Part shown: positions 6,547-54,997 of the stretch, in pieces
Numbering within the stretch: position 1 is the first letter of the stretch
Layout of the letters: every line of letters begins with the position of its first letter
Assembly (NCBI GenBank): GCA_043228905.1
Contig: JBHGNT010000001.1
Location: 16,926,001-16,990,000 of the forward strand
Reading direction: 5' to 3'
Length of the DNA stretch: 64,000 nt
Source of the DNA: Azolla caroliniana
Taxonomy: Eukaryota > Plantae > Polypodiophyta
Made by a program: the position numbers and the translations under genes
Notes under the pieces: model-generated
Told to the model about the DNA's origin: nothing
Database searches by the model: none
The model's input: the letters and a program-made list of their open reading frames with translations, nothing else

Positions 6547-7260
6547 CCTACCATTTAGCCAATACCCATTATATGTGTAAAATAAAATGTGTTGTTTCAT
6601 TTGAAGTATCATTGTATAGTCTAAACCATGTAATGTACTACATGTGCAGCATATAGCACACATGCAAGAGCCCTCTTTGCATGTGTGACATATGGCCCAC
6701 GTGCAAAACCATCCCCTTCCTATAAAAGGAGAAGGGAGTGTAATCACAAGGATATCAAGGAATCAATCAATCATATTGAATAAAATTATTGTATGGAATC
6801 GAGCAAAATTATATTGTAAGAGATATCATAATAGAGAAAGAGGGAGAGAAGGTAAAAGCTATATAAAATCTTAAAAAGACAATAGAAGAACTAGCTTGGC
6901 GGTGGCGGTGCTCAGGTTGTAACGGAAAGGCAGAGGTTCGAGTCTTATCCTCGTCGAAAGATAGAAGGGAAGATTGTGGTCTCCTATCAAGAAAGAGAAG
7001 AGCGACTACCTTGTGAGACAAAGTTCGATGGTTCAACGACACTCACAACCATTTTGTAACTCTTTCATGAAATAATTATAAATTTCTTACATTCCCTCAA
7101 TTATTATTTTTCATCCTATCTTGTCATATCTTGTTGATCACTATTTATCTATTTCCACTCTTTTGTCTCTTCCATCCAAAATCCCAACGATTCCTTCCTC
7201 ACTTTCACGTTGTCTTCTGTCTAGGCAACGCTACGCTTCTAGGCGAGCCACACCACGACA
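6547..7260 (+). repeat. Distal part of 5' LTR of element B
   Basis: Close direct repeat of the 3' LTR; ends CACGACA. Confidence 0.9.
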
Positions 7261-7265
7261 CAATT

Positions 7266-7282
7266 TGGTGAACCTGATGTGA
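7266..7282 (+). promoter_or_regulatory. Primer-binding site of element B, tRNA-Trp type
   Basis: TGGTGAACCTGATGTGA, 5 nt after the LTR, matches the complement of the plant tRNA-Trp 3' end (TGGTGAACCCGACGTGA) with two C>T changes. Confidence 0.7.
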
Positions 7283-7321
7283 AATGGGGAAGTAGAAGAG
7301 ACATCTAAAGTAAAGATCAAC

Positions 7322-10300
7322 ATGAACATCGCAAGTATGAGTACAATGGATCTGGTAATGTTGTTTACTGAAAGGTTGAATCAAGATCGATTATTTCATG
7401 CCTTATGAGAAGTCTGAGAGAAGATTGGTATGCTTGATGGCACAATATTTCGAAGTATGTGAATATATATCATGATGAAATGGAAATGTCTGGTATAAAT
7501 GATGTCAATATGATAGAAAACTTTTATAAATTAGTGGATATGGAATTAAGTGATAGAATTCATGAGATACAAACATTGCATAGTTTGGATTGGAATGCAT
7601 TCAAAGAAGCACTTGTGTTTGAATATGCTCGTGAGGATTTCTCTCGCGTTACTATGCTTTCATTCCATGAATGGGTTCTAAAAGAAAATAAAGGATTATC
7701 TGTGGTTGCCACGAAAAAAGAGTTTGATAGATTGTATGGACACTTAAAGCCAGAAGAAAGAAATTCTTTGTCTTGGAAAAAGGTTGCTTTATTTTTGCAG
7801 GCAATTGACAAGAGATATAGAAAAGAATTGGAATTTATGCTTGAAGTACCAAATATCGAGGATGGTATAACTGCAAATTGGAATGAGGTAACAAATGCTT
7901 GTAATAAATTTAGGAAAAGAATGCAAAGGAATGGTGCAATGCTACAAATACCACATGTGGGAATCACAAATCGGCTTGAGCAAAACATCGAAGTTCAAAG
8001 ACTTGGTCTAGAACCATCACACGAAATGGTCCATCAACCACAAGAAATGATCGAAAGTAAGAGTGAGTCTTTGCTTGATGATTTAGTTCAAAGTATGAAA
8101 GATCTAACAATTAAAGTGGCAAAGCTTGAGAATGGTCAGACTTCAAGGTCAAGGGAACCATTTCGACCTCGATGCATGTGGTGTGATAGTCTCGAACATC
8201 GATTACGTGATTGTGCGGAATATAAAGACATGGAAAATCGAGACTTGGTCTATTGGAAAAATGGTAGCATTTACTTAACTGAAACTAGAAGTCCACTTAC
8301 AAAGAACTTTGGTGATGGTGGTGTTAAGGTTAAGTTTGAAGAAGCTGAAGCAAAGAAGGCTTCTGCAATGTACTACTCGGCAACGACATGAATGCATCTT
8401 GATGACATGGCATACCGATCATCATTCTGGGAGAAGGTTGCCGGAGATTCTGTAAGGAAAAACACTGGATGGGATGTTCCAGTAGATGTTATCACAATCT
8501 ATGCTTAGATGGCAGAACACCAAGAGCATGAGGTGATAGTGGAAGAAAAAAGGAAAAGGTCGGATGATGAGATTGGCTCAACAAAAAAGCATGAAACAAG
8601 AGAAAGCAAAAGAAAAGAGATGGACACAAAAGTTGAAAAAAGTAAATCTGGTCCTTCATTCAAATTAATGTCTGATATTGAAAAGGATACAGATTTAAAG
8701 AAAATTTTAGAAACAAGAATACTAGACAGTCGAGTAGAATTTACACTAAGAGAAGTGTTACATATTGCAGAAAAGGAATTTCATGATGAAATAATTGATA
8801 TTGTGCAAAGAAAGAAGCAAGTAAATGAGCAGGTTAAAGAAACAAATCCGAAGGTGGCATATGAAGTGGTAAGCAACGAGTCGAACAATATCATTGTTGA
8901 CTCTCAACATGCATCAACCTCAATGATAAGTTCAACAGAGACAAGAAGCCACTACTCTCGCAAATGTTGGGCAAAAGCCACTACTGAGCATCATGTGAAG
9001 ATTGGAAATGTTGCAGACCCGGTGATGGCACCTATGGATCATGGTTCTGAAATAAATATAATGAGTGCTGATTTTTATAGGAAAGCTAGATGGCCAATTG
9101 ATACTCAACATGGTTGGCGCATAAAAGTAGCCACATTAGTCACCGAAGATTTATTTGGTGCATGCCCAAATGTAAAGGTTACTATTGGTGATATAGAGGT
9201 AGATCAACATTTCTTTGTGCAAGAAGGATCTACCTATCCGATAATCTTGGGGCAACTATACATCACAACGGTACGGATGGAGACCAAAGTCCTTGACAAT
9301 GGTTCTACCTATGCGAAGATTCGAAGCCAAGATGGACGAAGAACTGCACAATTTATGACAATTCGCCCAAATCATGAGAGGAACAAGCAAGAGCTTCGTG
9401 AGCATTCGATACCAAAAGAATGTGATGATTTTGATAATCAGGTTTTTTACTAGGACTGTTGGAAATGAGGGTTGCAATAGTCCCATTATTAAAAGACCCT
9501 CGCATAGGGCATTACAACATATGAATAAGTTATTTCATGTTTCTAAAAGTGGTGCTATATGTGTGACTAGGATGTATGAATGCAAGAGGAACTTGAAAAA
9601 GAATGCTAATTTGTTTCAATAGGCATTGAAGGATAATGGAGTACTTGAAATGGAAGAGCACATTGAAAGTGTTATGGAAGAAATTTCTTTTGCAAATACT
9701 ATAGAAGAGTTAGAAAATGTATTTGAAAGAAGATGATGAGAGTGTTAGAAAGATACATGTAAACTCAATTGATATGTATTATGAGATTGATAGGTATAAT
9801 TGTAAATATGAAGAAGTAGAAAGTTTATGTAATACAAAATACAAAACATTAGACAAAAAGATCAAACCAACTGCAATACCATTACCCATTGGTGGCGAAG
9901 AGAAGATGTAGGCAACAGCAACCGAGCCTATGCTTTGACCAATAGAGAAGATTGGATATCACTTCACTTCGGAGACAATAGATAACTTGAGAATTAGAGG
10001 GGGTGAATTTCTTCTGCAATAAGAGATCACGACTTTGAAAGAAATTATCTTTAGGCATGGGAAAGCGTTCGCATTCAAAGCTGAGGAGATTGGTTGTGTA
10101 GATCCAAAGGTGGTGACACCAATGGCAATATTTACTATCCCTCATATTCCTTGGAATTTTAAACCTATTGCAGTACCAAGGGCTCGATTGCCTCAGTTGT
10201 TGGAGCTACTAAAGGATAAAGTCAAGATGAAGATTTTAGAGCCTTCCAACGCACCATATTCCAATCGATGGTTCACCATTCCAAAGAAAGATGGTTCTCT

Positions 10301-12872
10301 AAGATTCATTCAAGATCTACAACTAGTAAACAAAGTCACAATCCGAAATGCAAGAATCGGACCTATCGTTGATGAATTTGCAGAAGCTTTTGATGGGAGA
10401 GCAATTTATTCTATAGGAGACCTATATTCGGGATACGACCAATTTCAGCTAGCAATTGATAGTCGCAATATCCCAACAATGAAAACACCAATTGGATTAG
10501 TTCAGATGTGCACTCTACCTCAAGGTGCGACACATTCAGTTCTACATGAGTACATCCCAAAGGTAACTATGCCATTTTTAGATGATATTCCTATTAAGGG
10601 ATGCTTAGAAAGAGAGAAAGATGAGACTATGGTTGGAAATGGTTGCAGAAAGTTTGTGATGGATCACATTAATGATTGTGAAAGTATTTTAAATAAGCTT
10701 GAGCAGGTACATTTGACACTATCAGGAACAAAGTCAAGCTTTGGGTAGAACGAAGTTCTGATAGTTGGTCATATGTGTGCCTAGTATGGGAGGAAGCCGT
10801 CACCGATCCAAATTAACGCAATACAAAATATGAAGGAGGTTTGCGAATCGGTAACGGAGGTGAGAAGATTTTTAGGTGCATGTGTGTTTTATCATATTTG
10901 GTTACCACACTTTGCACATGTATCATATCCTCTCTACCAACTTTTAAGAAAAGGGAGGAAGTTTATTAGGACTAATGAACATACAGAAGTGGTTCAACAA
11001 TTGAAAGAAGCATTATTGAAAGCTCCAGTTTTTCGTCAACCAGACTACAAAGGTGAAAGCCCAATTATAGTGACAGTTGATACTAGCCCAATTGGGATCG
11101 GTTGGGTTATCAACCAAGAAGATGAAGACCAACATCGATATGCTATCAAATTTGGAGCAATGATATTAAATGAAAGACAAAGAAATTATGCACAAGTTAA
11201 ACGAGAGTTGTGGGGTTTGCTTACTGCATTAAAAACAGATAGAGAGTACTTGTTTGGTGCAGATGTAGTGGTTGAAACAGATTGTCAGCCACTCATCGGA
11301 ATGATAGCAAGTTGCACGGCACCAGATATTGCAATGCTTCGGTGGATTGCATACATCAGAACCATGAACCCAGAATTACGGCATATAAAGGGCAAAGAGA
11401 ACCCAGTCACAGATATGTTGTCAAGAGCAAGGTTCATAAATGAAAGGGTGATGCAAGCTGAAGATAAGAATTGGGCAACTACAAGCCATCAAGTTGCTCA
11501 TCAAGTATCTATTAAGTCTCCTGATGAGTTTAATGTAAGTATAATGCTCAAATATATGGAGTATGAAGGTCAATGGTTAGAAATAGGAAATTCTCTAAAG
11601 ACTCAAGAAGCCAACCCATCATGGTCGAAGAAACAATTAAATGAATTTTGAAGACGAGCATTCAAGTGTTTTTTACATAAAAGGCATTTATGGAGGCGCC
11701 CAAAAAGGCCAACTGAAAATCCTCTTCGAGTCATTTGTAAGGATGACATTAAGAGAAAATTAATTAATGAATTCCATGATAGTTTGTGGGTAGGACATGG
11801 AGGCATATGGGCGAAATTTATGAAGTTGAAAGAAAAGTATTGGTGGCCACATATGTATAAAGATGTAACGAAATTTGTGGAAACCTGTGAGGTCTGCTAG
11901 AGGTATTCAACTATTCGGTATTGAGATGAGTTAAAACCAACATATTCATCATCAATGCATTTTAAATGGATGGTCGATCTAGTGACAATGTCACTTGGGG
12001 AAGTTCAAATGTGATACTTAGTACTAGCAAGAGAAGACCTTACAAACCAAGTAGAAGGTAGACCACTACGACAAAAAACAACTAGAGTTGTATGTAAATT
12101 TTTGTTAGAAGATGTAATATGTCGTTACGGGTGTGTTGGTAAAATAATTGCAAATAGAGGAGAACTTGACTCTGATGAAGCTAGAGAATTCTTCAGCTGG
12201 ATAGGAGTCAAATTATCACTTATAACTACGTATAATCTAGAAGCCAATGGAAAGATTGAAAGAGGAGATAGCCCAATAGTTAAGGCAAGGCGACTGTGAA
12301 AAGTTGTAAAGGTAAAATAAGAGTTTGGTCACGCATGCCACCTTATGCACTATGGGCGGATCAGACAACGCATAGTTCGGTAACAGGATACAGGCCAACT
12401 GAATTGGTACTTGGCCAAAAGGCCATCATGCCGGTAGAAGAATCAATTATGTCATAGATATCTATTCCATTGAGAGAGGAGGTGAGCAAAGAAGAATTGC
12501 TTGCTTTGCGAATTCAACAATTAGAGTGTCGACCTCAAGATATAGAATTGGCAGCCCAACAATTGAAGGAGGCTTGACTAAAGAATAAATTTTGTTTTGA
12601 TAAAACTCACAGAATTCGGTCGAAGAAAATAGAAGAAGGGGATTGGGTACTCATGTATGATAGCAATTTAGATAATCAACGTAGCACCGTCTGCAAGCTT
12701 AACATATAAGCTTACATAGTGAAAAAAGTATATGATAACTTAACATATAAGATTAGTGGATTAGATGGGACACTAATGCTAAACGTGGTAGTTGGAAAGA
12801 GGATAAAAGTATTTAAGAAAAGGTTTGAGCTTGAACCTCCTCCAATAGATCAATATGAAGATGAAAGATAGT
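7322..12872 (+). pseudogene. Degenerate gag-pol of element B
   Basis: ORFs 7459..8391, 8509..9453, 10035..10748, 10830..11651 and 12102..12299, with many stops. Confidence 0.88.
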
Positions 12873-13413
12873 GGCCCATGCCGGAGGATGTGTAGGTCTA
12901 GAGGGGGTGGATGTTGTGAAGTACGAAAGCTTCACATTAAAAGTCTACAAAAAGATAAATACGTAACTAAAATAAAATATATCTTGATATTGTTTTATAA
13001 AGGTAATATTAAAAACGCACTATGATAATATTATACATTATATGTAGAGGCAAATAAAACATATATATTATATTACATGGACAAGAGAAGACTTGAACCA
13101 ATAAACCCCACCTTATTACTGAAACCTTACGGATTACCCTATAATTGTAGTATGTATAAAACCATATGTCTTGTTTACCTAAAGTAACATTGTATGGTTT
13201 AAATCCTAAACCATATATTGTACTACATGTGCACCATATATTGTATTACATGGGCGAGAGAAGACTTGAACCAAAAACCTCCACATTATGAACCTCAAAG
13301 CCTACCATTTAGCCAATACTCATTATATGTATAAAATAAAATGTTTTTTTATTTCATTTGAAGTATCATTGTATAGTCTAAACTATGTAATGTACTACAT
13401 GTGCACCATATAG

Positions 13414-13438
13414 GGGTGAAAGCATGCGAGTGGAAACA
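13414..13438 (+). repeat. Left TIR
   Basis: Reverse complement of 22212-22236 with one mismatch. Confidence 0.95.
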
Positions 13439-13767
13439 ATTAGCTATGTCCTTGACATAGCTAATTAGCTATGCAAAAAGCTACCATTGATAAATAGTCA
13501 TTTTAGTAAAAAGCCATCATTAATAAATTAAGTATGCAAAAAACTACCATTGAAAATACTAGAGTGTTTTAATTACATATGTAAATGAGTGCCATAAATG
13601 TGCAACATAAATTGATGTGTGCACCATAAATGTGTACCATAAATTATATATCGAATTCCTAGGTCCATTATGCATGATCCTTTGCCACATCACGTAGGCC
13701 ATCTCTAGTTGAGTACTATGGGTTAGTTGCTACCACTGTTGCTAAACCCTATCGAGTCCACCTGCCG

Positions 13768-14540
13768 CCACTCTACACTGAGGGGCCGCTACTGTGCGTT
13801 CCAAGCATCATCAAAGAGCTGCTCAATCTGACGGGGTTCTCTTCTCTGTGACACTCTACACTCAGGGGCCACTACTGTGCATTCCAAGCATCATCAAAGA
13901 GCTGTTCAATCTGAGGGGGTTCTCTTCTCTGTGCCACTCTACACTCAGGGGCCATTACTGTGCGTTCCAAGCATCATCAAAGAGCTGTTCAATCTGAGGG
14001 GGTTCTCTTCTCTGTGCCACTCTACACTCAGGGGCCATTACTGTGCGTTCCAAGCATCATCAAAGAGCTATTCAATCTGAGGGGGTTCTCTTCTCTGTGC
14101 CACTCTACACTCAGGGGCCGCTGCTGTGCGTTCCAAGCATCATCAAAGAGCTGTTCAATCTGACGGGGTTCTCTTCTCTTTGCCACTCTACACTCAGGGG
14201 TTGCTACTGTGCGTTCCAAGCATAATCAAAGAGCTATTCAATCTGACGGGGTTCTCTTCTCTTTTCCACTCTCACTCAGGGGCCGCTACTGTGCGTTTCA
14301 AGCATCATTGGTAACTGTTCAATCTGACGGGGTTCTCTTCTCTATGCCACTCTATTCTCAAGTGCCTTCTATGTGCGTTTCAAGCATCATCGGTAACTGT
14401 TCAATCTGACGGGGTTCTCTCCTCCATTGCCATCATTCTATACTCAGTTGCCACTACTGTCCAGTCCCGAATTGCTTCCACATTTCGATTTGACGGAGTT
14501 CACTCATCCAACGGCAACATTCTACACTCAGTTGTTGCCA
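13768..14540 (+). repeat. 83-bp tandem repeat (~6 near-identical units plus ~3 decayed units) upstream of the transposase
   Basis: Unit is approximately CCACTCTACACTCAGGGGCCRCTACTGTGCGTTCCAAGCATCATCAAAGAGCTGTTCAATCTGASGGGGTTCTCTTCTCTGTG. ORF starts recur every 83 bp from 13794 to 14209. Confidence 0.95.
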
Positions 14541-14755
14541 TTGGTCGGTCTTGGATCGCCTCCTCAACTGTTGGATCCAACAGAGTGAAATCCTCTACTG
14601 TTCGGTCTTGGATTGCAATAACTTTTCTGTCTATTGATTATCTTGTGTATTGTTGTGTCTAATCTTGTGTATTGTGTGGAATATTTTTGTGTATTGTTGT
14701 TGCCCATAGCCATCTTTAATACTTGTTTTTTTTTCTGGAAATTTAGGGTTTTAAC

Positions 14756-17700
14756 ATGTCTAGCCAAATGGAAGGGGAAGAAGGGTGTTTAGAATTACCC
14801 CTCAATGATCATAAGGATAGGGATGATGTTATCAGGACACAACAAGCCATACGAAACTATTGGGCAGAAAAAAAAAGGAAACATCGTCAATTGTTGAAGG
14901 ATACGAAAGCCACACTCAGTAAAGGTAAGGATAGTTTAGCTGAGAATGTAAGTAATGCGACTACCATCATAGAGAGAAAGGTTGTAGACTATTTCAATGT
15001 TCAAACCAAGCACATCAGCAATGAAGAAAAGAAGGTAGTACTTTATGGAATATGTAATGATCCATCGATAAAGGACTTAGTTGATTGTGATGGTCTTAAT
15101 GCAAACATATCATCTATTTTAGTAAATAATCTTCGTAATAGTTTCGTATCCATGAGCAGGTCAGAAGATGATCTTGTCTTAAAAAGGTCTAGTCTAATGA
15201 TGTTACTTAATAGTGATGTTGACGATATAAACATCAGTGAGCTATCTAAGGTAATTGGTGTTAGTAGAAAAACAGTGTACAATACAATGAACCGTATAAT
15301 TTCCTCGGGTGAAGGAACTAGTCTACTAAAGCTAACTACAAGATGTAAGCCAATGACACCCATAACATTTGAAATCAAGGATGTAATCACAATGTTTTGG
15401 ACTAATGAGAGTAGGGTTTCACCCAATAAAAAGGATTTATGCAGGAAACGTGTTGGAAGAAATCAATACGAGGAGCATCCCATTCATCTTCTTGATGTAC
15501 CTCAGGTATTTACATTTATCTCAACATTTGTTTTGACTCTACTCGGAAAGTTAATTAGCTCAGTTAGCAGAAAAGCTAATTAGCTTATCAGTTACATTTA
15601 CCTCAGTTAGCTACTAGGATCGCTACTACATAGGTAACTAGCTACTCTCAATAGTTACTACCATGATAGCTAATTAGCTATTCTCAATAGCTAATTTAGG
15701 TACTACCAGATAATTAGCTGTACTGCTAGCTAGTTAGCTATCATGGTAGCTAGTTAGCTATTTCGTTATTACCAGCTAATTAGCTACTAGGAAAGCTAAT
15801 TAGCTACCATGATAGCTAATTAGCTACTATGATAGCTACTACATAGGTAACTGGCTACTCTCAATAGCTACTACCATGATAGCTAATTAGTTAGGATAGC
15901 TAATTAGCCACCATTATAGCTAATTAGCTACTAGACCAGCTAATTAGCTACCATGATAGCTAATTAGTTACTAGGACAGCTAATTAGCCACCGTGATAGC
16001 TAATTAGCTACCATGATAGCTAATTAGCTACTATACCAGCTAATTAGCTACCATGATAGCTAATTAGTTACTAGGAAAGCTAATCAGCCACCATTATAGC
16101 TAATTAGCTACTAGACCAGCTAATTAGCTACCACGATAGCTAATTAGCTACTAGACCAGCTAATTAGCTACCATGATAGCTAATTAGTTACTAGAAAAGC
16201 TAATTAGCCACCATGATAGCTAATTAGCTACTAGACCAGCTAATTAGCTACCATGATAGCTAATTAGTTACTAGGAAAGCTAATTAGCCACCATGATAGC
16301 TAATTAGCTACTAGAGCAGCTAATTAGCTACCATGATAGCTAATTAGCTACTAGGACAACTAATTAGCTACTAGGACAGCTAATTAGCTACCATGATAGC
16401 TAATTAGCTACTAGGACAACCAATTAGCTACTAGGACAGCTAATTAGCTACCATGATAGCTAATTAGCTACTACGACAGCTAATTAGCTACCATGATAGC
16501 TAATTAGCTACTAGAATAGCTAATTAGCTACCATGATAGCTAATTAGCTACTACGACAGCTAATTAACTACCATGATAGCTAATTAGCTACTAGGACAAC
16601 TAATTAGCTACTAGGACAGCTAATTAGCTACCATGATAGCTAATTAGCTACTAGAATAGCTAACTAGCTACTAGAATAGCTAACTAGCTACTAGAATAGC
16701 TAATTAGCTACTAGGATAGTTAGCTAGTTACGAGAATAACTAATTCCCCTTTATTACGCAGGTCGATTTATTTATTAGGTTCAAACGAATGCATCCAACT
16801 ATCAAAGTTCAACTACGAACATTCGAGTCTCTTAAGCCACACTTTGTGAGACGCTTAAAGGATCGATACACATGTTGTTGCATTTACCATGTACAGATGG
16901 GTTTTCTGAAGGACTCTGTTAATCTACTACGTCACCATAGCGCATCCCTAACTAATACAGTTTGCACATGTGGGTGCCCAATCTGTCGATCAAGCCCGCA
17001 AGAGGAGTGTAAATCATCTGAGCACGTTATCTCTTCCATGGTGTCAAAGCATTCTTTGGGAACCACATCCTGTTCTTCCTAGATGGATGATTTGCCCCGT
17101 TTGATGCCGTCGTGTGAAAGTTGTTTTCATGATTTAGGAATTCAACTGATTTTAGGTAATCCATCTTTATGTGGCACGACATGAAAGGTGCTATGAAAAA
17201 CACGTAACCGACCGAATTACGTGAAATGGATAAATCAATCTGGTTAGGGCATTCTTTAGAACTTACTTCAGGAAGAATCATCCAGGGCTGCGGTTGCGGT
17301 TTCTTCTTTCTTGTATTCATAACTTTTTTCTATTGCTTTTTCGGCGAAAAGGCAAGCAAGTTTTACCTGACTTAATTTATTAGATTCAATATTGTGTCCG
17401 AGAGAAACTGACGCTATCTTCCATATTCATAAATGTGTCATGGGTTTATGTCAAGATTGTGGCCCTACTAGATTTAGGTGGTGTCCAAATGAATTGAGTA
17501 GTGAAATATTGATCTCTGTGAAGTTATTTGAGTCAGTGAACACCAATTTCGAAGGAAAGGTGTGTAAAAGAAAGGATCTAGTTCGGAAGATGCTTAAACC
17601 AAGGGATTTGGTGTCTCTGTTTGTAGTATCTCTAGGAAAGTTCATTAAACACAACTTCTTTTATTCATGGCAGGCCCATCAGTTTAAGACTTGCATATCT

Positions 17701-18246
17701 GATTTCCCAAATGATGTAGTAGTCTCAGTAGTAGATTTCGCAGAGAATTATACTTTCAAGCAGCAGAATGAAATTCAATCTATGCATTGGTGTTCAGTTC
17801 AGGTAACCATTTTTGTGCACATAACATATTTTCGAGTTTCAGGTGATGTTAAAAAAGTAATTCATTTCTTTATTTCCGATGATAAGAAGCATGATACCTT
17901 GTTCGTCCAACACTGTTTTAAGTTACATTGGCAGTGGTTATTAGCTCAACGTTTGGAGCTTACTCAACATTGGGTCTGGTCTGACGGAGCTGCGTCACAA
18001 TTCAAGGCTCGACGTCCATTTTATTTTGTGGGGAGGTATCCTGCTATAACAGGTTTGGAGATGAGATGGAATTTTTTTGGGTCTGGCCATGGTAAAGGTG
18101 AACATGATGGTGCAGGGGCTGTTATAAAGCGGGCACTTACCCATGAACAACTAAAGACAGATGGTGTGCACATGAATTGTGCATCACATGAATTGTGCAT
18201 CACATCATTTGCCGTCCTTAATCCACAAGATTCTACAATAACATGA
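14756..18246 (+). CDS. Sola2-like DDD transposase, spliced (exons 14756-15505, 16762-~17008, ~17384-18246; ~619 aa), probably C-terminally truncated
   Basis: The GT..AG intron 15506-16761 joins DVPQ|VDLFIRFKRMHP in phase 0. A Cys-rich segment (TCCCIYH, CTCGCPIC) precedes the catalytic motifs in 17392..18246. The second junction is uncertain. Confidence 0.8.
15550..16742. repeat. Array 1 of the palindrome TAGCTAATTAGCTA with 6-bp spacers (20-bp period), filling transposase intron 1
   Basis: For example TAGCTAATTAGCTA-CCATGA-TAGCTAATTAGCTA-CTAGAC-CAGCTAATTAGCTA. Confidence 0.97.
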
Positions 18247-18254
18247 CAGTTATT

Positions 18255-19821
18255 TAGGATAGCTAATTAGCTACTTTACTAAACTATGGTAGAAGCTAGG
18301 ATAGCTAATTAGCTAGTACGATAGCTAATTAGCTAGTATGATAGCTAATTAGGTACTTTACTCAACTATGGTAGTAGTTAGGATAGCTAATTAGGTACTT
18401 TACTCAACTATGGTAGTAGTTAGGATAGCTAATTAGCTACTAGGACAGCTAATTAGCTGCCAGTAGCTAATTAGCTACTAGGATAGCTAATTAGCTGCCA
18501 GTAGCTAATTAGCTACTAGGATAGCTTATTAGCTACTTTACACAACTATGGCAGTAGCTACTAGGATAGCTAATTAGCTACTAGGATAGCTAATTCGCTA
18601 GTAGGATAGCTAATTAGTTGCCAGCAGCTAATTAGCTAGTAGGATAGCTAATTACCTACTAGGATAGCTAATTAGCTAGTAGGATAGCTTATTAGCTACT
18701 TTACACAACTATAGTAGTAGCTAGGATAGCTAATTAGCTACTTTACTCAACTATGGTAGTAGCTAGGATAGCTAATTAGCTACTTTACTAACTATGGTAG
18801 TAGCTAGGATAGCTAATTAGCTACTTTACTAACTACGGTGGTAGCTAATTACCTACTAGGATAGCTAATTAGCTAGTAGGATAGCTTATTAGCTACTTTA
18901 CACAACTATAGTAGTAGCTAGGATAGCTAATTAGCTACTATGGTAGCTAATTAGCTACTTTACTCAACTATGGTAGTAGCTAGGATAGCTAATTAGCTAC
19001 TTTACTAACTATGGTGGTAGCTAGGATAGCTAATTAGCTACAATGAAAGCTAATTAGCTACTTTCTCAACTATGCAGTAGCTAGGATAGCTTATTAGCTA
19101 CTAGGACAACTAATTAGCTGCCAGTAGCTAATTAGCTACTAGGATAGCTAATTAGCTGCCAGTAGCTAATTAGCTACTAGGATAGCTTATTAGCTACTTT
19201 ACACAACTATGTCAGTAGCTAATTAGCTACTATGATAGCTAATTAGCTAGTAGGATAGCTAATTAGTTGCCAGTAGCTAATTAGCTAGTAGGATAGCTAA
19301 TTAGCTTTTTTACACAACTATGGTACTAGCTAATTAGCTAGTACCATAGCTAACTAGCTACTAGGGTAGCTTATTAGCTACTTTACACAACTATGTCAGT
19401 AGCTAATTAGCTACTATGATAGCTAATTAGCTAGTAGGAAAGCTAATTAGCTAGTAGGATAGCTAATTAGTTGCCAGTAGCTAATTAGCTAGTAGGATAG
19501 CTAATTAGCTTTTTTACACAACTATGGTACTAGCTAATTAGCTAGTACCATAGCTAACTAGCTACTAGGATAGCTTATTAGCTACTTTACACAACTATGG
19601 CAGTAGCTAATTAGTTACTAGGATAGCTAATTAGTTGCCAGTGGCTAATTAGCTAGTAGGATAGCTATTTAGCTTTTTTACACAACTATGGTACTAGCTA
19701 ATTAGCTAGTACCATAGCTAATTAGCTACTAGGATAGCTAATTAGCTAGTAGCTCATTAGCTGCCAGTAGCTAATTAGCTAGTAGGATAGCTAATTAGAA
19801 AAGACTAAGCTTATTAGCTAC
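18255..19821. repeat. Array 2 of the palindrome TAGCTAATTAGCTA, between the two convergent genes
   Basis: Same core, with spacers CTAGGA, GTAGGA, GCCAG and the longer CTTTACACAACTATGGTAG. Confidence 0.97.
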
Positions 19822-21757
19822 AATATGGTATACCTGTTTGTTTTCTCCACTCATTTGGTAGAGTTGTACTGCAATCTCCCAAACAGAATGCAGCAATTCG
19901 ATAGGCATGTTGAAAACAAAGCAGATGGTATGTGTGGTTGCATGGTTGTAGGTGAACCAACAAAGACGCAGTTTTGTCCTCCACACCTAACCCGCAAGCG
20001 ATGCAACGTGCTTGAACTGTCAATAAATCATTTTCTGGTTCTACTTCATTTGGTAAGGGAGCAAGAATGTTCAGGTCCAAATCCTGTCTGGTCCTTACCA
20101 TTCCCTCCACAAAATGTAGCTTCTTCTTAAGGCAGCTAACTACCTGTTCTTGATGAATGTATTGTTCCTTCAACGCAACAGAGAAATTTACCGATTAATT
20201 ATTCTTGTTGTTGAAAGAATAATTAATCGGTAAATTACACCAACTTTGCTCAGGAATCGTTAACTTACTTGAAGCTTATCCAAATTGTAATCTGCAACAG
20301 TATTTACACCTAGAAGGTCCAGGTTCATTGAAAGAACCTGGATCTCTATTTGCAGTTCTATTTTACGCTGGGGATCCAGTGGCCCCTCTAATTCAAGCTC
20401 CTGTTGCGCAACCTATTCCAGATAATGCTTGATTAGCACATTTTACCCGTTATTTATAACACAATCACATACCAGCAAAACAATAGTTACCTGAATCTTA
20501 TTTCTAATTGTTGTAACAACAGAAGTAACTTTGCTCTCCATTGCAGAAGCCATTGTGGCTTTCTCTAAATCAGTCTTAAAAAATGCCAATGTCTCACAGG
20601 CTTCATGGACATTTTTTAGCATATAGCTAACCAATGTCTCACCTGTATCATCGACATTGGATTTCCTTGGGTGTCGGTGTGGTGTATGCCCCCGGTCTTG
20701 CTGGGAGTCGGCAGTTGCATCAACAACTGCCATGCTCCAAAATCTGTCTATGTTTTGTGCCAAGGTCCCCATCTTTCGGCATCTTTTTACCGATGCCTCA
20801 CCATAGACTGCCCAAGCTACCCTATACATTTCAGGGTCTCTAGATTCCTTCGCTGTTTTGCAGTACTCATATGCAAATGCTCTAGCAAATGAAACTGACA
20901 ACTCATTGTTGACTGGGATCTCCTGATGAACTTTCTGGTGCAGTCTCATGCAGTCATCGTACAAGTCGGCTCGTACATGCTTCAGCTTGACCTTGCCTTT
21001 GACTCTAGGCACTGTATATACTGTCATCCAGTCTATATCACTGATCAATTTATCACTTAGGACAGCAAGGTCAACACCCTCGACTGACAGACCATAGGTG
21101 TTGTGGAAGTCCTCCTTTGTCTCGCAAAATTTTGCGAAGTTTAGCACTCTCGTATACGGAGGAACGAGCCATCTGAAATATCATTTCAGAAATCAGAAAT
21201 AGTGCAAAATCAGAATATGTGAGAATCAAAAACCCCAATCAACAACAACAAAAATGGTGCAAAATCTTTAACTTAGCAAATCAGAAACCCTAATCATAAT
21301 TTGTATTCAGAAATTTGAAATCAGAAACCCTAATCAAAATCTGTAATCAGAAGTTTGAAATCAGAAACCCTAATCAAAATCTGTAATCAGAAGTTTGTAA
21401 CCAGAAACCTTATTCAGAAATTCTAATCAGAAATTTATAATCAAAAACCCTAATCAGAAATTTCAATCAGAAACCCTAATAAAAAATTTCAATCACAAAC
21501 CCTAATCAGAAATCCTAAGCAGAAATTTATAAACAAAAACCCTATTCAGAAATTCTAATTTGTAATCAAAATTTGTAACCAGAAACCCTATTCAGAAATT
21601 CTAATCAGAAATTTATAATCAAAAACCCTAATCAGAAATTTCAATCACAAACCCTAATCAGAAATTTCAATCACAAACCCTAATCACTAAAGACAGGATT
21701 AAACACAAAAAAAGTAATATAAACACACCTGTTGCTACTCCCCGATTTGCGAGACAT
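19814..21757 (-). CDS. Transposon-borne 5-exon gene, predicted 373 aa, with C-terminal RING-H2-like zinc finger (exons 21757-21729, 21172-20491, 20400-20367, 20291-20269, 20167-19814)
   Basis: All four introns are GT..AG (556, 90, 75 and 101 nt) with compatible phases 2/0/1/0, and the joined CDS has no internal stop. It reads MSRKSGSSNRWLVPPYTRVLNF...IRNKIQ|ELELEGPLDPQH|YNLDKLQ|EQYIHQ... and ends in C-x2-C-x17-C-x-H-x2-H-x2-C-x10-C-x3-C. Confidence 0.75.
21190..21690 (+). repeat. Degenerate TCAGAAA / AAACCCTAAT minisatellite in intron 1 of the RING gene
   Basis: About a dozen AAACCCTA copies interleaved with TCAGAAATTT. Confidence 0.85.
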
Positions 21758-22211
21758 CCTTGTATGGGACTCCAAGGACTTCGCCCTATTCGATTTTAGG
21801 GAAATATGAATCGGCACCAAAGTTCAGACAGTAGTCAAAAAGAAAAAACAAATGTTTGGGGTTTCTGTAACTGAAACATACCTGGACAATGATCGAGCGG
21901 GTTCTGTGTTGTAGCTCTCAATCTGCAATGTCGATTTTTTGCTGTTGCGGGAGCTACGTCTGCGTTCGTGCTCTGAGTACTCCATCTGCGTTCAAAATCA
22001 GACTTAGGCTAAACAGGAAATTGATGACATTGAAGTCGACCTTAGATGATGGTGATATTCCCTAAGTTCCACTACGTCTGAAACAGAAGTTCAAATATTT
22101 GAGTTTTTTCATAAATTAGTTTTTCAAATATTTGATTTTCCCACAAGAAAGACTAGCTAAACAAATAGCTAATTAGCTATGGCCATTTTAGTAGCTAATT
22201 AGCTATAATAG

Positions 22212-22236
22212 TGTTTCCACTCGCATGCTTTTACCC
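22212..22236 (-). repeat. Right TIR
   Basis: TGTTTCCACTCGCATGCTTTTACCC. Confidence 0.95.
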
Positions 22237-22844
22237 ATAGCACACATGCAAGAGCCCTCTTTGCATGTGTGACATATGGCCCACATGCAAAACCATCCCC
22301 TTCCTATAAAAGGAGAAGGGAGTGTAATCACAAGGATATCAAGGAATCAATCAATCATATTGAATAGAATTATTGTATGGAATCGAGAAAAATTATATTG
22401 TAAGAGTTATCATAATAGAGAAAGAGGGAGAGAAGGTAAAAGCTATATACAATCTTCAAAAAACAAGACAAGAACTAGCTTGGTGGTGGCGATGCTTAAG
22501 TTGCAACGAAAAGGCGGAGGTTTGAGTCTTATCCTCATCAAAAGATAGAAGGGAAGATTGTGGTCTACTATCAAGAAAGAGAAGAGCGACTACCTTGTGA
22601 GACAAAGTTTGATGGTTCAACGACGCTCACAACCATTTTGTAACTCTTTCATGAAATAATTATAAATTTCTTACATTCCCTCAATTATCATTTTACATCC
22701 TATCTTGTCATATCTTGTTGATCTCTATTTATCTATTTCCACTCTTTCGTCTCTTCTGTCCAAAATCCCAGCGATTCCTTCCTCACTTTCACGTTGTCTT
22801 TTATCTACGCGACACGATGCTTCTAGGCGAGCCACGCCACGACA

Positions 22845-24020
22845 CCGGATTGCCGAAGTTCAGTGACCGGAAAGGTCAAGTATGTGAAACTTGCCAGTTG
22901 AGGAAGCAGCATAGGCTTCCATTCCCAAATGAGAAGAATTAGAGCCGGAATCGGCTTGATCTCATCCATCCGAATGTGTGGGGACCAACTCGAAACGTGA
23001 GCATTGGCGGGAGATGATAATTCTTCTCCTTCATCGATGATTTCAATCGGTACACCTGAAAATACTTAATCGAGAAGAAGAGTGAAGTCTTCTTGTGCTT
23101 CCGGGACTTAAAGAATCATGTAGAATGAGAAACCGGAAGGAAGATCAAGAGTCTGAGATCAGATGGTGGAAAAGAGTACTTTTCCGGACAGTTCACGAGT
23201 TATCTACAAACGAAGGGAATCCGATGAGAATTCTCCTGGAGATACATGCCGGAGCACAATGTCGTGGTCGAACAACGGAATGGGACGCTCGTAGAAGTGG
23301 CAAGGGTGATGCTACAAGAAAATGCATGCCCCAGATTTATTGGGCTGAAGCAATTTGGACTGTTGTTTACGTACAAAATCAGACATCTGCCTTAGGGACA
23401 AAGGTGTCGCCGCACGAACTGTATTTCGAGCGGAAGCCAAATTTGGCACACCTTCGGGTATTCGAGAACATTTACTATGTGCATGTGCCAGATGAGAAGT
23501 GGAGGAAACTTGATGCAAAATCTGAGAAGTGTATCCTAGTTGGCTACTCTCACGAGCAAAAGGGATACAAGCGCTATAACCCCCGTTCAAAGCAAGTCCG
23601 AGTTAGCCGTGATGTCGTTTTTGATGAATCCGCATTTTGGTACTTCTCACCACCGGAACCCGAGCTGATTGTTGTGGATGAAACAACTAACTCCGGAACA
23701 AAACGCAACATAGCGGAATTTGAACCGGATAGTTTGACTTCTCTCTGGATCCGTCGAATCCAGACTGGTTGAGCCAAAATGGTCCACCAGATGACAAGCA
23801 GTCGAGTAGTGAACACTCGGTCGTGCTCTCTCCTCACAAGGAACCGAGGAGACAGTTGATGCGTAAAGAGAAAGGGAAGAAGAAGCTGCCGGAGTATGGC
23901 CCAGATAGGGAAGAGTCGGATCGGAGTGAGTCCGACTCCGGAAAGAACAAAGACGATCTTTAGAAGAGAAGTTCAAGTCGGTCAAGAGGGCCACGAAATC
24001 AACGAACTAGAAATTGCGTC
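22845..24020 (+). pseudogene. Ty1/copia element C: GAG-pre-integrase and integrase remnants (host of element B)
   Basis: CETCQLRKQHRLPF, WAEAI..VYVQN, KLDAKSEKCILVGYS..KGYKRYNP, VSRDVVFDE. Confidence 0.88.
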
Positions 24021-49701: not shown

Positions 49702-52700
49702 TGTTGGGATTACGGTCCCTTCGGATGGGATGGTCGGATCCGGTTGTCGGTTTCGGATCCGGATGACGAAGACCCCAGTTTCGGTACCGGATGACGAATG
49801 TACCCGGAGAGCGATCCGGATGCAGGGACATATCCGTGAATATGTTCGCTATGGGCCCCTGAGGCTACAGTTGTAAATAGCCCAAAGTCATATGAGTATA
49901 AATATGACTTAGGGCAAACTGTTTTGTTGTTGCTTCTCATTTTTCTGTTTTTTCCACTCAAGAGGAGTGAAGAGTAAGCAGCCGTGAGAGAGAGAGAGAG
50001 AGAGATAGAGCGCGAGAGAGGAAGAGGACGACGCCTCTGTGTATTTCCGCCGCCTGTGGCGAGGACAGCGAGCTCAAGGTTGTCGCCTTGGAGCTCGTCA
50101 TTGTATACTTCTCTTTGTATAGTGTTGTTTGGAGTCTTGTACTCCCGTGGTTTTTCCCATCTAGGGTTTTCCACGTTAATCACTGTGTACTCGTGTATTT
50201 CTCTTTTGGTTCCTATTTTCTGCTCCATTGATCCGCAATTACTCGGGTGTGGCCGACTGAAGAAGGTGAATCGAAGCGTTGATTCTCAACAAACTGGTAT
50301 CAGAGCGACTGTTGCAGAAAATGGAAGGCGGCGGCAGCGGGCAGCCGGGGATGATGGTGCTGAACGCACAGAATTACGCCGACTGGAAGATCAAGATGGA
50401 GGATCTTCTGATTGTTCGGGACCTGTACGAACCGATTGACAGGTCGGAAATACCGAAGGGGGTACTTGAGTCGGAGTGGAAGCTCCTGAACCGGAAAGCC
50501 GTAGCGACGATCCGACAATATGTCGATGTAAGCGTCCTACAACATGTGGCGAACGACACCAACGCATATGAAATGTGGAAGAAGCTGTCGGGCCTCTACG
50601 AGAGGAAGAATGCGTTGAACCGGACCTCCCTGATGAGGAAGATTGTGAATCTCAAGTACCGGGACGGCGAGAGTATGGTGGAACACGTAAGCACGTTCAT
50701 GGGATTCGTGAATCAGCTTGCGGCGATCAAGTTCCCGCTGGAGGATGCAATGCAAGCCATCATCTTGATGTGTACATTGCCGGACAGCTGGGAGAACTTG
50801 GTGGTGACTCTCAGCACCTCCTGCACCGAAGATAACTTGTCCTTGCAAACGGTAAAGACAAGTATCTTGAACGAAGAAGCGCGTCGGAGAGACAAGGAAC
50901 CGGCCTCCGAACCGAAGATGCTATTTACCGAATCGGATCGGGGAAGACAATGGAACCGGAGTCCGCAAAGACGGGAGAAGTCGGGGACCCGGTCGCAGTC
51001 AAGAGGAAGGCCCACACGCTTCCACTGTGGGAAGCCGGGGCACTTCCGAAAGAACTGTCGGCATTACCGAAAAGACAACGGAGCCGACGACACCGATTCG
51101 AAGAAGTCACCGGAGAGAAACGGTGCATACCGGGGAGCCACGGACCGGAGAGGTTCGGATCGGCGAGGGCAGGACCGGAAAGGAACGACGGCACTCGCGG
51201 CAAGTGAAGAAGAAATCATGCTCATCACCGAAGAAGGTGAGCTAAACATTGCCGGCGATGAGACGACCTGGGTGGTCGATTCCGGAGCATCGTTCCACCT
51301 GACCCCGGAGAGAAGATACTTCTCATCCTACACAGCCGGGGAGCATGGCTGCGTTCGGATGGGAAACGAAGGTACGTGCCGGATTGCCGGCATAGGAGAC
51401 GTGTGGTTGACAACCCCGACCGGATGCAAAATGCTGCTGAAGAATGTCCGACACGTTCCGGAGGTCCGACTGAACCTGATTTCGGCCGGGAGGCTAGATG
51501 ATGAAGGCTACACGGGTAGCATCCGGAACGGTGTCATGAAGTTCAGCAAGGGGAGCTTGATAGTGGCTCGGGCCCGGAAGGTCAACACACTGTACCTGAT
51601 GAATGCCTGGTTATGTCCGGAAGAGCTGAATGTGGCAGCCGACACTGCCGGTGAGCTGTGGCACAAAAGACTGTGCCACATGAGTACGAAGGGGATGAAG
51701 AGGCTTGCAGAAGACAACCTTATTCCGGTGAAGCATGTGCACCTGGAGAAGTGCACCGACTGCCTGGCCGGTAAGCAGAACCGAACCTCCTTCCACTCAA
51801 GGCCACCGACGAGACGTAGCGCACCATTGGAGTTGGTGCACACCGACGTGTGTCAGGTAGAAACGAAGTCACATGGCGGAGCCCAGTACTTCGTAACATT
51901 CATCGATGATCATAGCCGAAAACTGTGGACGGCTCCGATGAAGACAAAGGACCAAGTGTTGTGCGTCTTCAAAGATCTCCACGCGAGAGTGGAAAGGGAA
52001 TCCGGCAAGAAGCTGAAAGCGATACGAGCGGATAACGGAGGGGAATACCGGGGGCAGTTCCAGGAGTACTGTCGCTCGAAGGGAATCCGGCTCGAGTTTA
52101 CTGTGCCGAAGACGCCGGAACTGAACGGGCTGGCCGAGAGGATGAACCGGACCATAATGGAGAGGGTCCGGAGTATGCTGGCGCATGCGAAATTACCCAA
52201 GGGATTTTGGGCTGAGGCAATGTCGACGGCGACATATGTGATAAACAGATCACCCTCAGTACCTTTGGACGGAGACACGCCGCAGAGAGTGTGGACCGGT
52301 AGGGAAGTATCCTACCGGCATCTGAAGGTGTTCGGGTGTCTCGCATACGTGCATGTGGCAAAGGACCGGAGAGGGAAGCTAGATCCAAAGACCCGGCCAT
52401 GCATATTCCTCGGTTACGGCGACGACGAGTTCGGCTACCGAGTATGGGACCCGGTCGACAAGAAGATATTCAGGAGTCGAGACATCATCTTCATGGAGGA
52501 CAAGACACTCGCCGACTTGGAGTCGGAGAAGAAGATGAAGAGCTCCAAGTCGACCGGTGAGGATAAACTCTACGAGGAGCAGTCCCGACCGGAAAGGGAC
52601 CGGTTAGCACTCGAGGATCCGGCCGAAGACGGTGAAGAAAGAGAACCGGCCGAGGAAGATGAAAATGATACCGGAACCGTTCCCGATCCCGAAATGGATT

Positions 52701-54997
52701 CGGATGAAGAAGAAGAATCAGAAGAACAGGTTACCGAAGCTCCGGAACGGAGATATCCTCTAAGAGAGAGAAGGGCCCCCCGGAGATTTCCGGAACCAGA
52801 GCACGTGCTGCTAACCGACGAAGGGGAGCCGGAGAGCTTTGAAGAAGCAAAGCATGACACCCAGAGCCGCAGGTGGTTGAGTGCCATGCAGGACGAGATG
52901 GATTCCCTGCATGAGAACCACACATATGAACTTGTGGAGTTGCCGAAAGGAAAACGGGCACTCCGTAACAAGTGGGTGTTCAAGCTGAAACCGGGAGATG
53001 CCGGAAACCCCCCGAGATACAAAGCCAGGATCGTGGTGAAGGGGTTTCAGCAGAAGAAGGGCGTCGACTTCGACGAGATATTTGCCCCGGTAGTGAAGAT
53101 GACCTCTATCCGGACGGTGCTGAGCATAGCGGCAAGCATGGACCTCGAGGTAGAACAGATGGACGTGAAGACGGCATTCCTTCACGGTGACCTCGATGAA
53201 GAGATCTACATGCAGCAACCGGAAGGATTCGAGAAGAAAGGGAAGGAGCACCTGGTATGCCGGTTGAAGAAGAGCCTTTACGGACTGAAGCAGGCTCCCC
53301 GGCAATGGTACCGGAAGTTCGATTCCTTCATGACCGACGAAGGGTACCTCAAAACGCAGTCCGACCACTGCGTGTTTGTGAAGAAGTTCGAAGGAGGAGA
53401 CTCTCTAATACTCCTCCTGTACGTGGACGACATGTTGATCGTCGGACGGGACCAGGTCAAGATACGGATGCTGAAGAAGGCTCTTCACCGAACCTTCTCA
53501 ATGAAGGACCTGGGTCCGGCGAGGCAAATACTAGGGATGCACATCATCCGGGACCGGAAGAAGAAGCAGTTGGGTCTGTCACAGGAGAAGTACGTGACGA
53601 AGGTGCTTCACCGGTTCAACATGTCGGAAGCGAGACCGGTCGGATCGACCCTCCCGACAAACTGCAAGCTGACCAGCAAGCAAAGTCCCAAGACAAAGGC
53701 TGAAAAGGAGGATATGATGGAAGTGCCGTATGCCTCAGCCGTCGGGAGCTTGATGTACGCCATGGTGTGTACGAGACCGGACATAGGATATGCAGTCGGA
53801 GTGGTGAGCCGGTACATGAGCAATCCCGGCAAAGAGCACTGGAACGCGGTCAAGTGGATACTCCGATACCTGAAGGGCACGGCAAACGTGTGCCTCCGAT
53901 TCGGCTCCGGTAAGCCCGAACTCGAAGGCTTTACTGATTCTGATATGTCGGCTGATGCAGATACCAGCCGGTCCACATCAGGGTATGTGATGACGTATGC
54001 AGGGGGAGCTGTTTCGTGGCAGTCGAGGCTGCAGAAGACGGTTGCGTTGTCAACCACGGAGGCGGAGTACATGGCGGCTGTTGAAGCCGGCAAGGAAATA
54101 ATATGGATGAAGGACTTCATTAGAGAGCTCGGTATCCGGCAGGAGGAGTACCGACTCTACTGCGACAGTCAGAGTGCAATCCACCTTGCAAAGAACGCGG
54201 CCTATCACTCCCGGACGAAGCACATCCAGCGAAGATATCACTGGATCCGGGAAAGGATAGAAGACAAGGAGTTCGTGCTGACGAAGATCCACACGGACGA
54301 GAACGGGTCGGATATGCTGACCAAGGTGCTCACACCCGACAAGCTGGAAGCGTGCCGGAAGAGGATCGGATTGGAGAAACATCCCATGCCGAAGTGAAGG
54401 GGGAGTTTGTTGGGATTACGGTCCCTTCGGATGGGATGGTCGGATCCGGTTGTCGGTTTCGGATCCGGATGACGAAGACCCCAGTTTCGGTACCGGATGA
54501 CGAATGTACCCGGAGAGCGATCCGGATGCAGGGACATATCCGTGAATATGTTCGCTATGGGCCCCTGAGGCTACAGTTGTAAATAGCCCAAAGTCATATG
54601 AGTATAAATATGACTTAGGGCAAACTGTTTTGTTGTTGCTTCTCATTTTTCTGTTTTTTCCACTCAAGAGGAGTGAAGAGTAAGCAGCCGTGAGAGAGAG
54701 AGAGAGAGAGATAGAGCGCGAGAGAGGAAGAGGACGACGCCTCTGTGTATTTCCGCCGCCTGTGGCGAGGACAGCGAGCTCAAGGTTGTCGCCTTGGAGC
54801 TCGTCATTGTATACTTCTCTTTGTATAGTGTTGTTTGGAGTCTTGTACTCCCGTGGTTTTTCCCATCTAGGGTTTTCCACGTTAATCACTGTGTACTCGT
54901 GTATTTCTCTTTTGGTTCCTATTTTCTGCTCCATTGATCCGCAATTACTCGGGTGTGGCCGACTGAAGAAGGTGAATCGAAGCGTTGATTCTCAACA
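49702..54997 (+). mobile_element. Intact young Ty1/copia element I (Tnt1/Tork-like), TSD GCTTG
   Basis: 590-bp LTRs at 49702-50291 and 54408-54997 with no difference seen by eye; PBS-iMet TGGTATCAGAGC at 50295; PPT GAAGGGGGAG; single uninterrupted ORF. Confidence 0.98.
50321..54397 (+). CDS. Gag-Pol polyprotein (gag, protease, integrase, RT, RNase H), 1358 aa
   Basis: WVVDSGAS, WHKRLCH..CTDC, VHTDVC/RADNGGEY/NGLAER, YVDDML, FTDSD..TEAEY..CDSQSA..SDMLTK. Confidence 0.97.
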   Translation: MEGGGSGQPGMMVLNAQNYADWKIKMEDLLIVRDLYEPIDRSEIPKGVLESEWKLLNRKAVATIRQYVDVSVLQHVANDTNAYEMWKKLSGLYERKNALNRTSLMRKIVNLKYRDGESMVEHVSTFMGFVNQLAAIKFPLEDAMQAIILMCTLPDSWENLVVTLSTSCTEDNLSLQTVKTSILNEEARRRDKEPASEPKMLFTESDRGRQWNRSPQRREKSGTRSQSRGRPTRFHCGKPGHFRKNCRHYRKDNGADDTDSKKSPERNGAYRGATDRRGSDRRGQDRKGTTALAASEEEIMLITEEGELNIAGDETTWVVDSGASFHLTPERRYFSSYTAGEHGCVRMGNEGTCRIAGIGDVWLTTPTGCKMLLKNVRHVPEVRLNLISAGRLDDEGYTGSIRNGVMKFSKGSLIVARARKVNTLYLMNAWLCPEELNVAADTAGELWHKRLCHMSTKGMKRLAEDNLIPVKHVHLEKCTDCLAGKQNRTSFHSRPPTRRSAPLELVHTDVCQVETKSHGGAQYFVTFIDDHSRKLWTAPMKTKDQVLCVFKDLHARVERESGKKLKAIRADNGGEYRGQFQEYCRSKGIRLEFTVPKTPELNGLAERMNRTIMERVRSMLAHAKLPKGFWAEAMSTATYVINRSPSVPLDGDTPQRVWTGREVSYRHLKVFGCLAYVHVAKDRRGKLDPKTRPCIFLGYGDDEFGYRVWDPVDKKIFRSRDIIFMEDKTLADLESEKKMKSSKSTGEDKLYEEQSRPERDRLALEDPAEDGEEREPAEEDENDTGTVPDPEMDSDEEEESEEQVTEAPERRYPLRERRAPRRFPEPEHVLLTDEGEPESFEEAKHDTQSRRWLSAMQDEMDSLHENHTYELVELPKGKRALRNKWVFKLKPGDAGNPPRYKARIVVKGFQQKKGVDFDEIFAPVVKMTSIRTVLSIAASMDLEVEQMDVKTAFLHGDLDEEIYMQQPEGFEKKGKEHLVCRLKKSLYGLKQAPRQWYRKFDSFMTDEGYLKTQSDHCVFVKKFEGGDSLILLLYVDDMLIVGRDQVKIRMLKKALHRTFSMKDLGPARQILGMHIIRDRKKKQLGLSQEKYVTKVLHRFNMSEARPVGSTLPTNCKLTSKQSPKTKAEKEDMMEVPYASAVGSLMYAMVCTRPDIGYAVGVVSRYMSNPGKEHWNAVKWILRYLKGTANVCLRFGSGKPELEGFTDSDMSADADTSRSTSGYVMTYAGGAVSWQSRLQKTVALSTTEAEYMAAVEAGKEIIWMKDFIRELGIRQEEYRLYCDSQSAIHLAKNAAYHSRTKHIQRRYHWIRERIEDKEFVLTKIHTDENGSDMLTKVLTPDKLEACRKRIGLEKHPMPK

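Follow-up and report, generated by a model that had tools for sequence, protein, structure and literature searches.

In a 64,000-nucleotide window of the fern Azolla caroliniana (the whole stretch of DNA that was analysed), a spliced gene on the minus strand, with its ATG at position 21757, lies within the TIRs of a Sola2-type DNA transposon. Our first-ranked reading, held tentatively and at somewhat under even confidence, is that a Sola2-type cut-and-paste family carries it as a second gene, spliced and under selection, and that its product acts, by analogy, as a self-addressed accessory factor resembling VANC of the Arabidopsis VANDAL elements. It is ranked first because the layout of a palindrome within the element parallels that of VANDAL elements.

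Fern genomes are very large and poorly explained, and few transposon-encoded counter-silencing factors are known. VANC is perhaps the most convincing case, according to the available part of a 2019 review (PMC6719617). A conserved accessory gene and a candidate target motif in one element make a ready fern test case.

The Sola2-type element and its insertion site

The element and its transposase gene have the following features.

13414..22236, Sola2-type DNA transposon, internally deleted, 8823 bp, defined by TIRs, ATAG duplication and empty site
13414..13438, plus strand, left TIR, 25 bp, target duplication at 13410-13413
22212..22236, minus strand, right TIR, 25 bp, target duplication at 22237-22240
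14756..18200, plus strand, broken Sola2-type transposase gene, assigned by motifs against a Sola2 profile and alignment
15507..16762, plus strand, transposase intron with the second palindrome array, 35 core copies

The 25-bp TIRs are identical at 24 of 25 positions. The insertion target was one LTR of a Gypsy-like element; ATAG flanks both ends of the Sola2 element, and the uninterrupted LTR has it once at the corresponding position (6653-6656), which gives a target duplication of 4 bp. The right terminal sequence is also found upstream of the gene in two other copies, L004 and (by blastn) L011. At this end the flanks differ among contigs of runs X1-X3, two of which diverge one base before the assigned end point. 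The sequence-only reading had placed the gene inside a DNA transposon, and the TIRs, the duplication and the Sola2-type transposase bear this out.

The HTH exon of the transposase runs to 15506 and its HTH matches are weak. The transposase motifs agree with a published consensus for the Sola2 profile (PMC5751038 supplement part 62) and with a Sola2 alignment (PMC3627910 Additional file 10, part 1 of 2); this assignment is a comparison by eye that carries no score and that covered Sola2 among the Sola profiles. The motifs shared with Sola2, as far as the available parts of the sources go, are DFAENY..Q.EIQS.HW, WSDG.ASQFK and W.FF...HGK...DG.G...KR (PMC3627910, PMC5751038). Short imperfect TIRs, a 4-bp target duplication and, in some families, second genes are likewise shared with the Sola2 elements described in the available part of PMC3627910, whereas the window target, ATAG, does not fit the AWWT given there for Dictyostelium families.

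The transposase reading frame contains seven in-frame stops at 17080-17368 and is truncated at approximately 18200; with these stops and the 3' deletion, an intact transposase is absent from the window copy. The stop-rich stretch of 0.3 kb at 17080-17368 may be an intron or an insertion. A 16-bp duplication (18169-18205) is found where the remnant of a predicted fifth exon of the second gene meets the antisense transposase, and a single deletion seems to have removed the 3' ends of both. The window copy is a deletion derivative that is incapable of moving autonomously.

The insertion host is a decayed Gypsy-like element (6550-22850) with LTRs about 94% alike, the second of them split by the Sola2 element, and with gag-like, RT and RNase H ORFs at 7438-11651. 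Inside the Sola2 element, 5' of the transposase, lies an 83-bp tandem repeat of eight copies with 91% matches (13767-14424). Elsewhere in the window, an uninterrupted Copia polyprotein frame of 1375 aa (50270-54397) is accompanied by a pair of 300-nt direct repeats of 100% identity at 49702 and 54408; judged by its sequence, this is a young LTR element.

Gene structure and selection

The second gene, read on the minus strand, is composed of the following parts, given in the order of transcription.

21881..22119, minus strand, 5' untranslated exon, covered by the run X1 contig and followed by a 96-nt GT-AG intron
21729..21757, minus strand, the 29 coding nt of exon 1, whose start is at about 21784; the X1 contig connects it to exon 2 with loose ends
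21173..21728, minus strand, intron 1 of 556 nt, containing a degenerate tandem repeat (13/40 bp)
20491..21172, minus strand, exon 2, 682 nt, N-domain of about 145 aa, linker and start of the coiled coil
20269..20412, minus strand, exon 3, a single exon of 144 nt, coiled-coil region
19834..20167, minus strand, exon 4, 334 nt, helix and RING-H2-like finger (C340-C384)
18233..19833, minus strand, predicted intron 4 (putatively spliced) with the AGCTAATTAGCT palindrome array, 39 core copies
18198..18232, minus strand, predicted exon 5 remnant, cut by the deletion and fused to antisense transposase, acceptor shared with homologues

The sequence-only reading had proposed a hidden five-exon gene encoding 373 aa, and that model can be rebuilt exactly (exons 21757-21729, 21172-20491, 20400-20367, 20291-20269 and 20167-19814). 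The spliced minus-strand gene stands; the structure given for exon 3 and the C-terminus of the 373-aa product do not. In place of the proposed micro-exons of 34 and 23 nt, a single open exon of 144 nt (20412-20269) fits better. The X1 and X2 contigs skip 78 nt (GT-AG) at intron 2, where the earlier model needs 90 nt, and of its predicted junctions the join of exons 1 and 2 agrees with the X1 contig. L004 and L005 lack acceptor 20400, donor 20366 and acceptor 20291 of the earlier model, while the splice sites of the four-exon model, with its 144-nt exon, are retained in 5 of 5 sequences. The 75 nt which that model removed as an intron show a dN/dS of 0.10-0.15 against L004 (24 codons) and align as protein to the continuous ORF of a relative, P0011, to which exon 3 is identical at 24 of 47 residues. 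The sole other stop-free combination of 34- and 23-nt exons listed requires an intron of 18 nt.

The final residues of the 373-aa product are probably intron read-through, since a donor follows 19834 and the homologues diverge exactly there. Exons 1-4 amount to 396 codons, and the product would be 402 aa if intron 4 were retained. The counterpart of exon 1 in L004 has 26 nt and the same phase.

Three introns (the 96-nt leader intron, intron 1 and intron 2) are missing from a 1252-nt contig of run X1, and X3 contigs retain these introns. The X1 and X2 contigs come from one study, their status as RNA is a software guess, and the X1 contig is about 95% identical to the window; none of the runs listed by the search is recorded as RNA, and runs X4 and X5 contributed no contig. 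As the X1 contig has 36/687 differences in exon 2 and unrelated sequence from 20369, it represents another, truncated copy; it departs from the gene within exon 3, 2 nt short of the donor of the earlier model, and covers no join of exons 3 and 4.

The degenerate repeat of intron 1 (21278-21686) is rich in AAACCCTAAT, with similar repeats in L001, L002, L004, L005 and L011; we take the AAACCCTAAT-rich repeat to resemble plant telomere or telo-box motifs. Among the relatives, P0011, P0045, P0127 and P0143 have continuous ORFs across the positions of intron 2 or 3 of the window gene and, at the level of sequence, intron content is variable among lineages of the protein family. At L001:671-2603 a gene judged PPR-like by eye precedes a RING gene copy that is truncated at its 5' end. 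In L011 an internal deletion fuses exon 2 to exon 4 (L011:2680-3825), and the region before exon 5 is far shorter and without the palindrome array.

The RING exon probably splices over the palindrome array to a fifth exon. Beyond the array, L002, L006, L009 and L010 share an acceptor and an exon start that match window position 18232. In L009 the required phase stays open through 170 codons of the predicted exon, whose product is acidic and ends in a basic stretch; L010 has one stop and L006 one frameshift, and in all three of these copies the end is a basic, NLS-like stretch. The window retains about 12 codons, followed by antisense transposase. An intact product would have about 566 aa, a length summed from different copies. 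No purifying signal is seen in predicted exon 5 (dN/dS 0.61-1.29 in 4 of 4 pairs), and none of the contigs guessed to be RNA covers it or joins it to the RING exon.

Selection across copies, one of the checks proposed with the sequence-only reading, is purifying between subfamilies. The window copy compared with L004 has a dN/dS of 0.25 (CI 0.19-0.33) over 383 codons, and the values against L004 are 0.22 for L001 and 0.21 for L002, all at a dS of 0.7-0.8; L005 is nearly identical to L004 and was not treated as independent. By region, dN/dS against L004 is 0.18-0.21 for exon 2 and 0.33-0.37 for exon 4, and for the RING alone it is 0.25-0.38. Comparisons within the subfamily give 0.63-0.88, the intervals spanning 1, as is expected for copies decaying after insertion. 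A methylation-decay signature is not evident in the private changes of the window copy (17/62 are C>T or G>A).

Purifying selection across mobile subfamilies argues that the element needs the gene. This bears on the alternative that a host gene was captured as a Pack-type passenger and has no role for the element. Giant algal DNA transposons do bear many genes of unknown function, as described in the available part of PMC12477816, and the window copy and several others are broken. Against a passenger stand the selection between TIR-bound subfamilies at a dS of 0.7-0.8, the element-specific arrays in the gene's own intron and the finding of no named or conserved host gene among the 20 relative clusters looked up. 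The passenger explanation is already weakened and we consider it very unlikely.

Domains of the encoded protein

The N-terminal approximately 150 residues define a family of 136 cluster representatives, most matches being to that part. The sequence-only reading had not recognised this region, and it still lacks a Pfam or PDB sequence match: no consistent Pfam match was obtained (69 proteins; 34 members, E up to 10) and the N-domain alignment had no PDB sequence match at E up to 10. The N-domain is an undescribed, confidently modelled family of more than 100 members without a sequence match in either database. Its conserved residues include W-L-x-V-F, V-Y-Q-x-x-P-x-N, E, F-A and A-W-A, and its mean net charge of +2.6 (51 sequences) makes it mildly basic. 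Identity with the plant mobile domain had no support from the Pfam searches. Of 20 relative clusters looked up, 7 have names, all of them for hypothetical proteins from the ferns Adiantum nelumboides and A. capillus-veneris.

The order of N-domain, coiled coil and RING-H2-like finger recurs in distant relatives at 25-40% identity. The strict motif C-x-H-x-Y/F-H-x2-C is present in 8 of 134 new family matches, many of which are single-exon fragments where the absence of a RING says little. Together with two degenerate cases, the eight strict RING-bearing relatives fall into five groups besides that of the window, with N-domain identity of about 21-41%. AlphaFold2 was applied to one relative with a continuous ORF, P0127, using a 67-row alignment (mean pLDDT 77); this model, which is of the relative and not of the window protein, shows a compact N-domain, mostly above pLDDT 90, and long helices spanning 173-326; its RING scores about 80. 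The P0127 RING matched the RING profile of the window family with a probability of 94. In the structure searches the coiled coil filled the match lists for N-domain and RING alike, and the Atlas search with P0011 returned no usable match. A search with the RING profile for longer proteins gave none among 7993 scored, which is weak evidence. L012 was rejected as a family member, being a chance match (29%, without the ligands).

The gene models of six relatives from three lineages (P0090, P0125, P0149, P0078, P0160 and P0064) continue into an FCP1/NIF-like phosphatase domain. PF03031 is above cut-off in two of the six, and Asn replaces the second Asp where the motif is seen. As these are automatic gene models, the extensions may be fused neighbouring genes; the domain was not seen in predicted exon 5 of the window's family.

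The finger itself holds up as first described, with eight ligands in order and a last pair of C-x3-C (C340, C343, C361, H363, H366, C369, C380 and C384). A search of all six reading frames of the window gave a single RING-H2 pattern, and 40 shuffles gave none. The C3H2C3 ligands have the consensus spacing, the last pair being C-x4-C in most of the distant relatives, and of 11 sequences spanning the ligands, 8 retain all eight. In order and spacing the finger resembles RING-H2 E3 ligases (RNF38; zf-RING_2 PF13639 and zf-rbx1 PF12678), and a cross-brace fold would be in keeping with this. The predicted fold of the window RING exon is poor (pLDDT 44).

One alternative to be weighed is a transposon-encoded E3 ubiquitin ligase with an N-domain that would select the substrate protein, be it the transposase or a silencing factor of the host. 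Among PDB sequences, the RING profile scores best with E3 RINGs, RNF38 being one of them (E 0.012), zf-RING_2 is weakly matched in 14 of 16 members, and the ten Atlas rows listed are all RING-type clusters (0.83-0.89). All Pfam scores, however, are below the curated cut-offs (best E 0.021; window exon 15.5 bits against a cut-off of 27.3). No IBR or RING2 follows the RING in predicted exon 5 (L006, L009 and L010) or in a Pfam scan of 69 relatives.

The helix Trp and the linchpin Arg are E2-related residues in RINGs. In close sequences the L1 Ile/Val position is Ala in 11 of 12 and Thr in one, Leu replaces the L2 Pro, mostly Ala replaces the helix Trp (a position checked against RNF38) and Ser or Asn stands at the linchpin Arg; these residues are likewise absent in nearly all distant relatives, the nine that cover L1 showing one Val. 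The finger lacks the Ile/Val, Trp, Pro and linchpin Arg through which RINGs usually contact an E2, which makes a canonical E3 doubtful. Parkin RING1, an RBR domain, also has a longer L2 and lacks the L1 Ile/Val and L2 Pro, yet is part of an E3, as reported in the available part of PMC3940038. The departures it shares with the finger leave room for ligase activity, and a RING active despite the missing E2-contact residues would be a new RING E3 subtype. The window finger differs from both RING-H2 E3 and RBR proteins in falling below the Pfam cut-offs, in the absence of the canonical E2-contact and linchpin residues and in having no IBR or RING2. Of the sequence-only reading, the transposon-encoded, spliced and selected gene with a RING-H2-like finger is upheld, while the E3 ligase is weakened; we regard it as improbable, with about a fifth part of our confidence or slightly more.

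Palindrome arrays and the proposed role

The core of the AGCTAATTAGCT palindrome occurs 77 times in the Sola2 element and not once in the other 55 kb of the window. Besides the 35 copies in the transposase intron and the 39 in intron 4, three lie beside the TIRs (13460, 22168 and 22194). Five other copies (L002, L005, L006, L009 and L010) have 6-15 palindromes behind the RING exon.

According to the available part of PMC5735166, the VANC protein removes methylation and binds a motif that has multiplied into tandem arrays, both within introns and in the non-coding DNA of the element ends. Arabidopsis VANDAL elements, which are MULEs, share with the window element an extra gene in a plant DNA transposon with a predicted coiled coil (available parts of PMC5735166, PMC6719617 and PMC13547354) and a short, tandemly arrayed motif in intronic and terminal DNA (PMC5735166). 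They belong to another superfamily, and the window protein has a RING, is without detectable VANC or MAIN homology in the PDB and Pfam searches with its N-domain, and would have binding and demethylation roles by analogy. In the VANC-like reading, the N-domain would bind the element's own palindrome arrays as the reader, the predicted coiled coil would oligomerise the protein, and the atypical RING, together with the coiled coil, would recruit host chromatin or ubiquitin machinery against silencing.

Several observations favour a VANC-like factor. The same TIR adjoins the gene in the window, L004 and L011; the palindrome core is confined to the element, in introns of both genes and beside the TIRs; dN/dS between subfamilies is 0.21-0.25 and the X1 contig lacks three introns; N-domain and RING co-occur in the window's lineage and five other groups; the AlphaFold2 model of P0127 is confident for the N-domain, the helices and most of the RING; and predicted exon 5 ends in an NLS-like stretch in L009, L010 and L006. 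On the other side, the N-domain is mildly basic and resembles no known family, its PDB and Pfam sequence searches connected it with neither VANC nor MAIN, and the arrays could instead be bound by the HTH of the transposase. The dN/dS within the subfamily (0.63-0.88) and in predicted exon 5 (0.61-1.29, with no contig coverage) also weighs against it, as does the nature of the spliced contig, a sequence of guessed RNA origin from a single study that is about 95% identical to the window and leaves the gene inside exon 3.

The CACTA TnpA and Harbinger Myb proteins are transposition cofactors and provide the model for another alternative. Such a cofactor would attach to subterminal motifs or to the transposase itself and contribute to the assembly or regulation of the transpososome; its RING would be structural or protein-binding. 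The palindromes directly beside both TIRs, the retention of the gene under selection, the missing E2-contact residues and the long predicted coiled coil are all in agreement with this, but 74 of the 77 motif copies are in internal introns, distant from the ends. Published Sola2 second genes, such as Fanzor1, are moreover unrelated (available part of PMC3627910), so the gene is not a universal Sola2 subunit. We give the cofactor about a quarter of our confidence, which makes it unlikely.

A bolder form of the VANC-like reading can also be formulated, in which an undescribed fern Sola2 protein family, with a new N-domain fold, a coiled coil, a non-canonical RING and, in three lineages, an FCP1/NIF-like domain, binds its own palindrome arrays and brings ubiquitin- or phosphate-editing to its own chromatin as a VANC-independent form of anti-silencing. 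This is speculative and we hold it at about a fifth of full confidence; if true, it would tie transposon counter-defence to ubiquitin signalling.

Sola elements with second genes are already known, namely Fanzor1 in Sola2 and a ParB-methyltransferase in Sola1 (available parts of PMC3627910 and PMC12477816). The literature search found no description of a RING-bearing Sola accessory gene or of the N-domain family; Repbase reports, the original Sola paper and bioRxiv supplements were outside its scope and may describe one. The Fanzor1 gene is from amoebozoa, whereas the gene reported here, with N-domain, coiled coil and RING, is from a plant (PMC3627910, available part). Sola1-1_Ec32 of Ectocarpus has an accessory gene on the strand opposite to the transposase, as in the window, which is proposed to act on the element's own DNA; that gene encodes the ParB-methyltransferase, and the element is a Sola1 of a brown alga (PMC12477816, available part). 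RING-type or related zinc fingers are present in other DNA transposons too, as the RING of RAG1/Transib and the cysteine-rich domains of piggyBac, and in the available parts of these sources the finger is within the transposase, whereas in the window it is encoded by a separate gene (PMC1131882, PMC4411706, PMC8086355).
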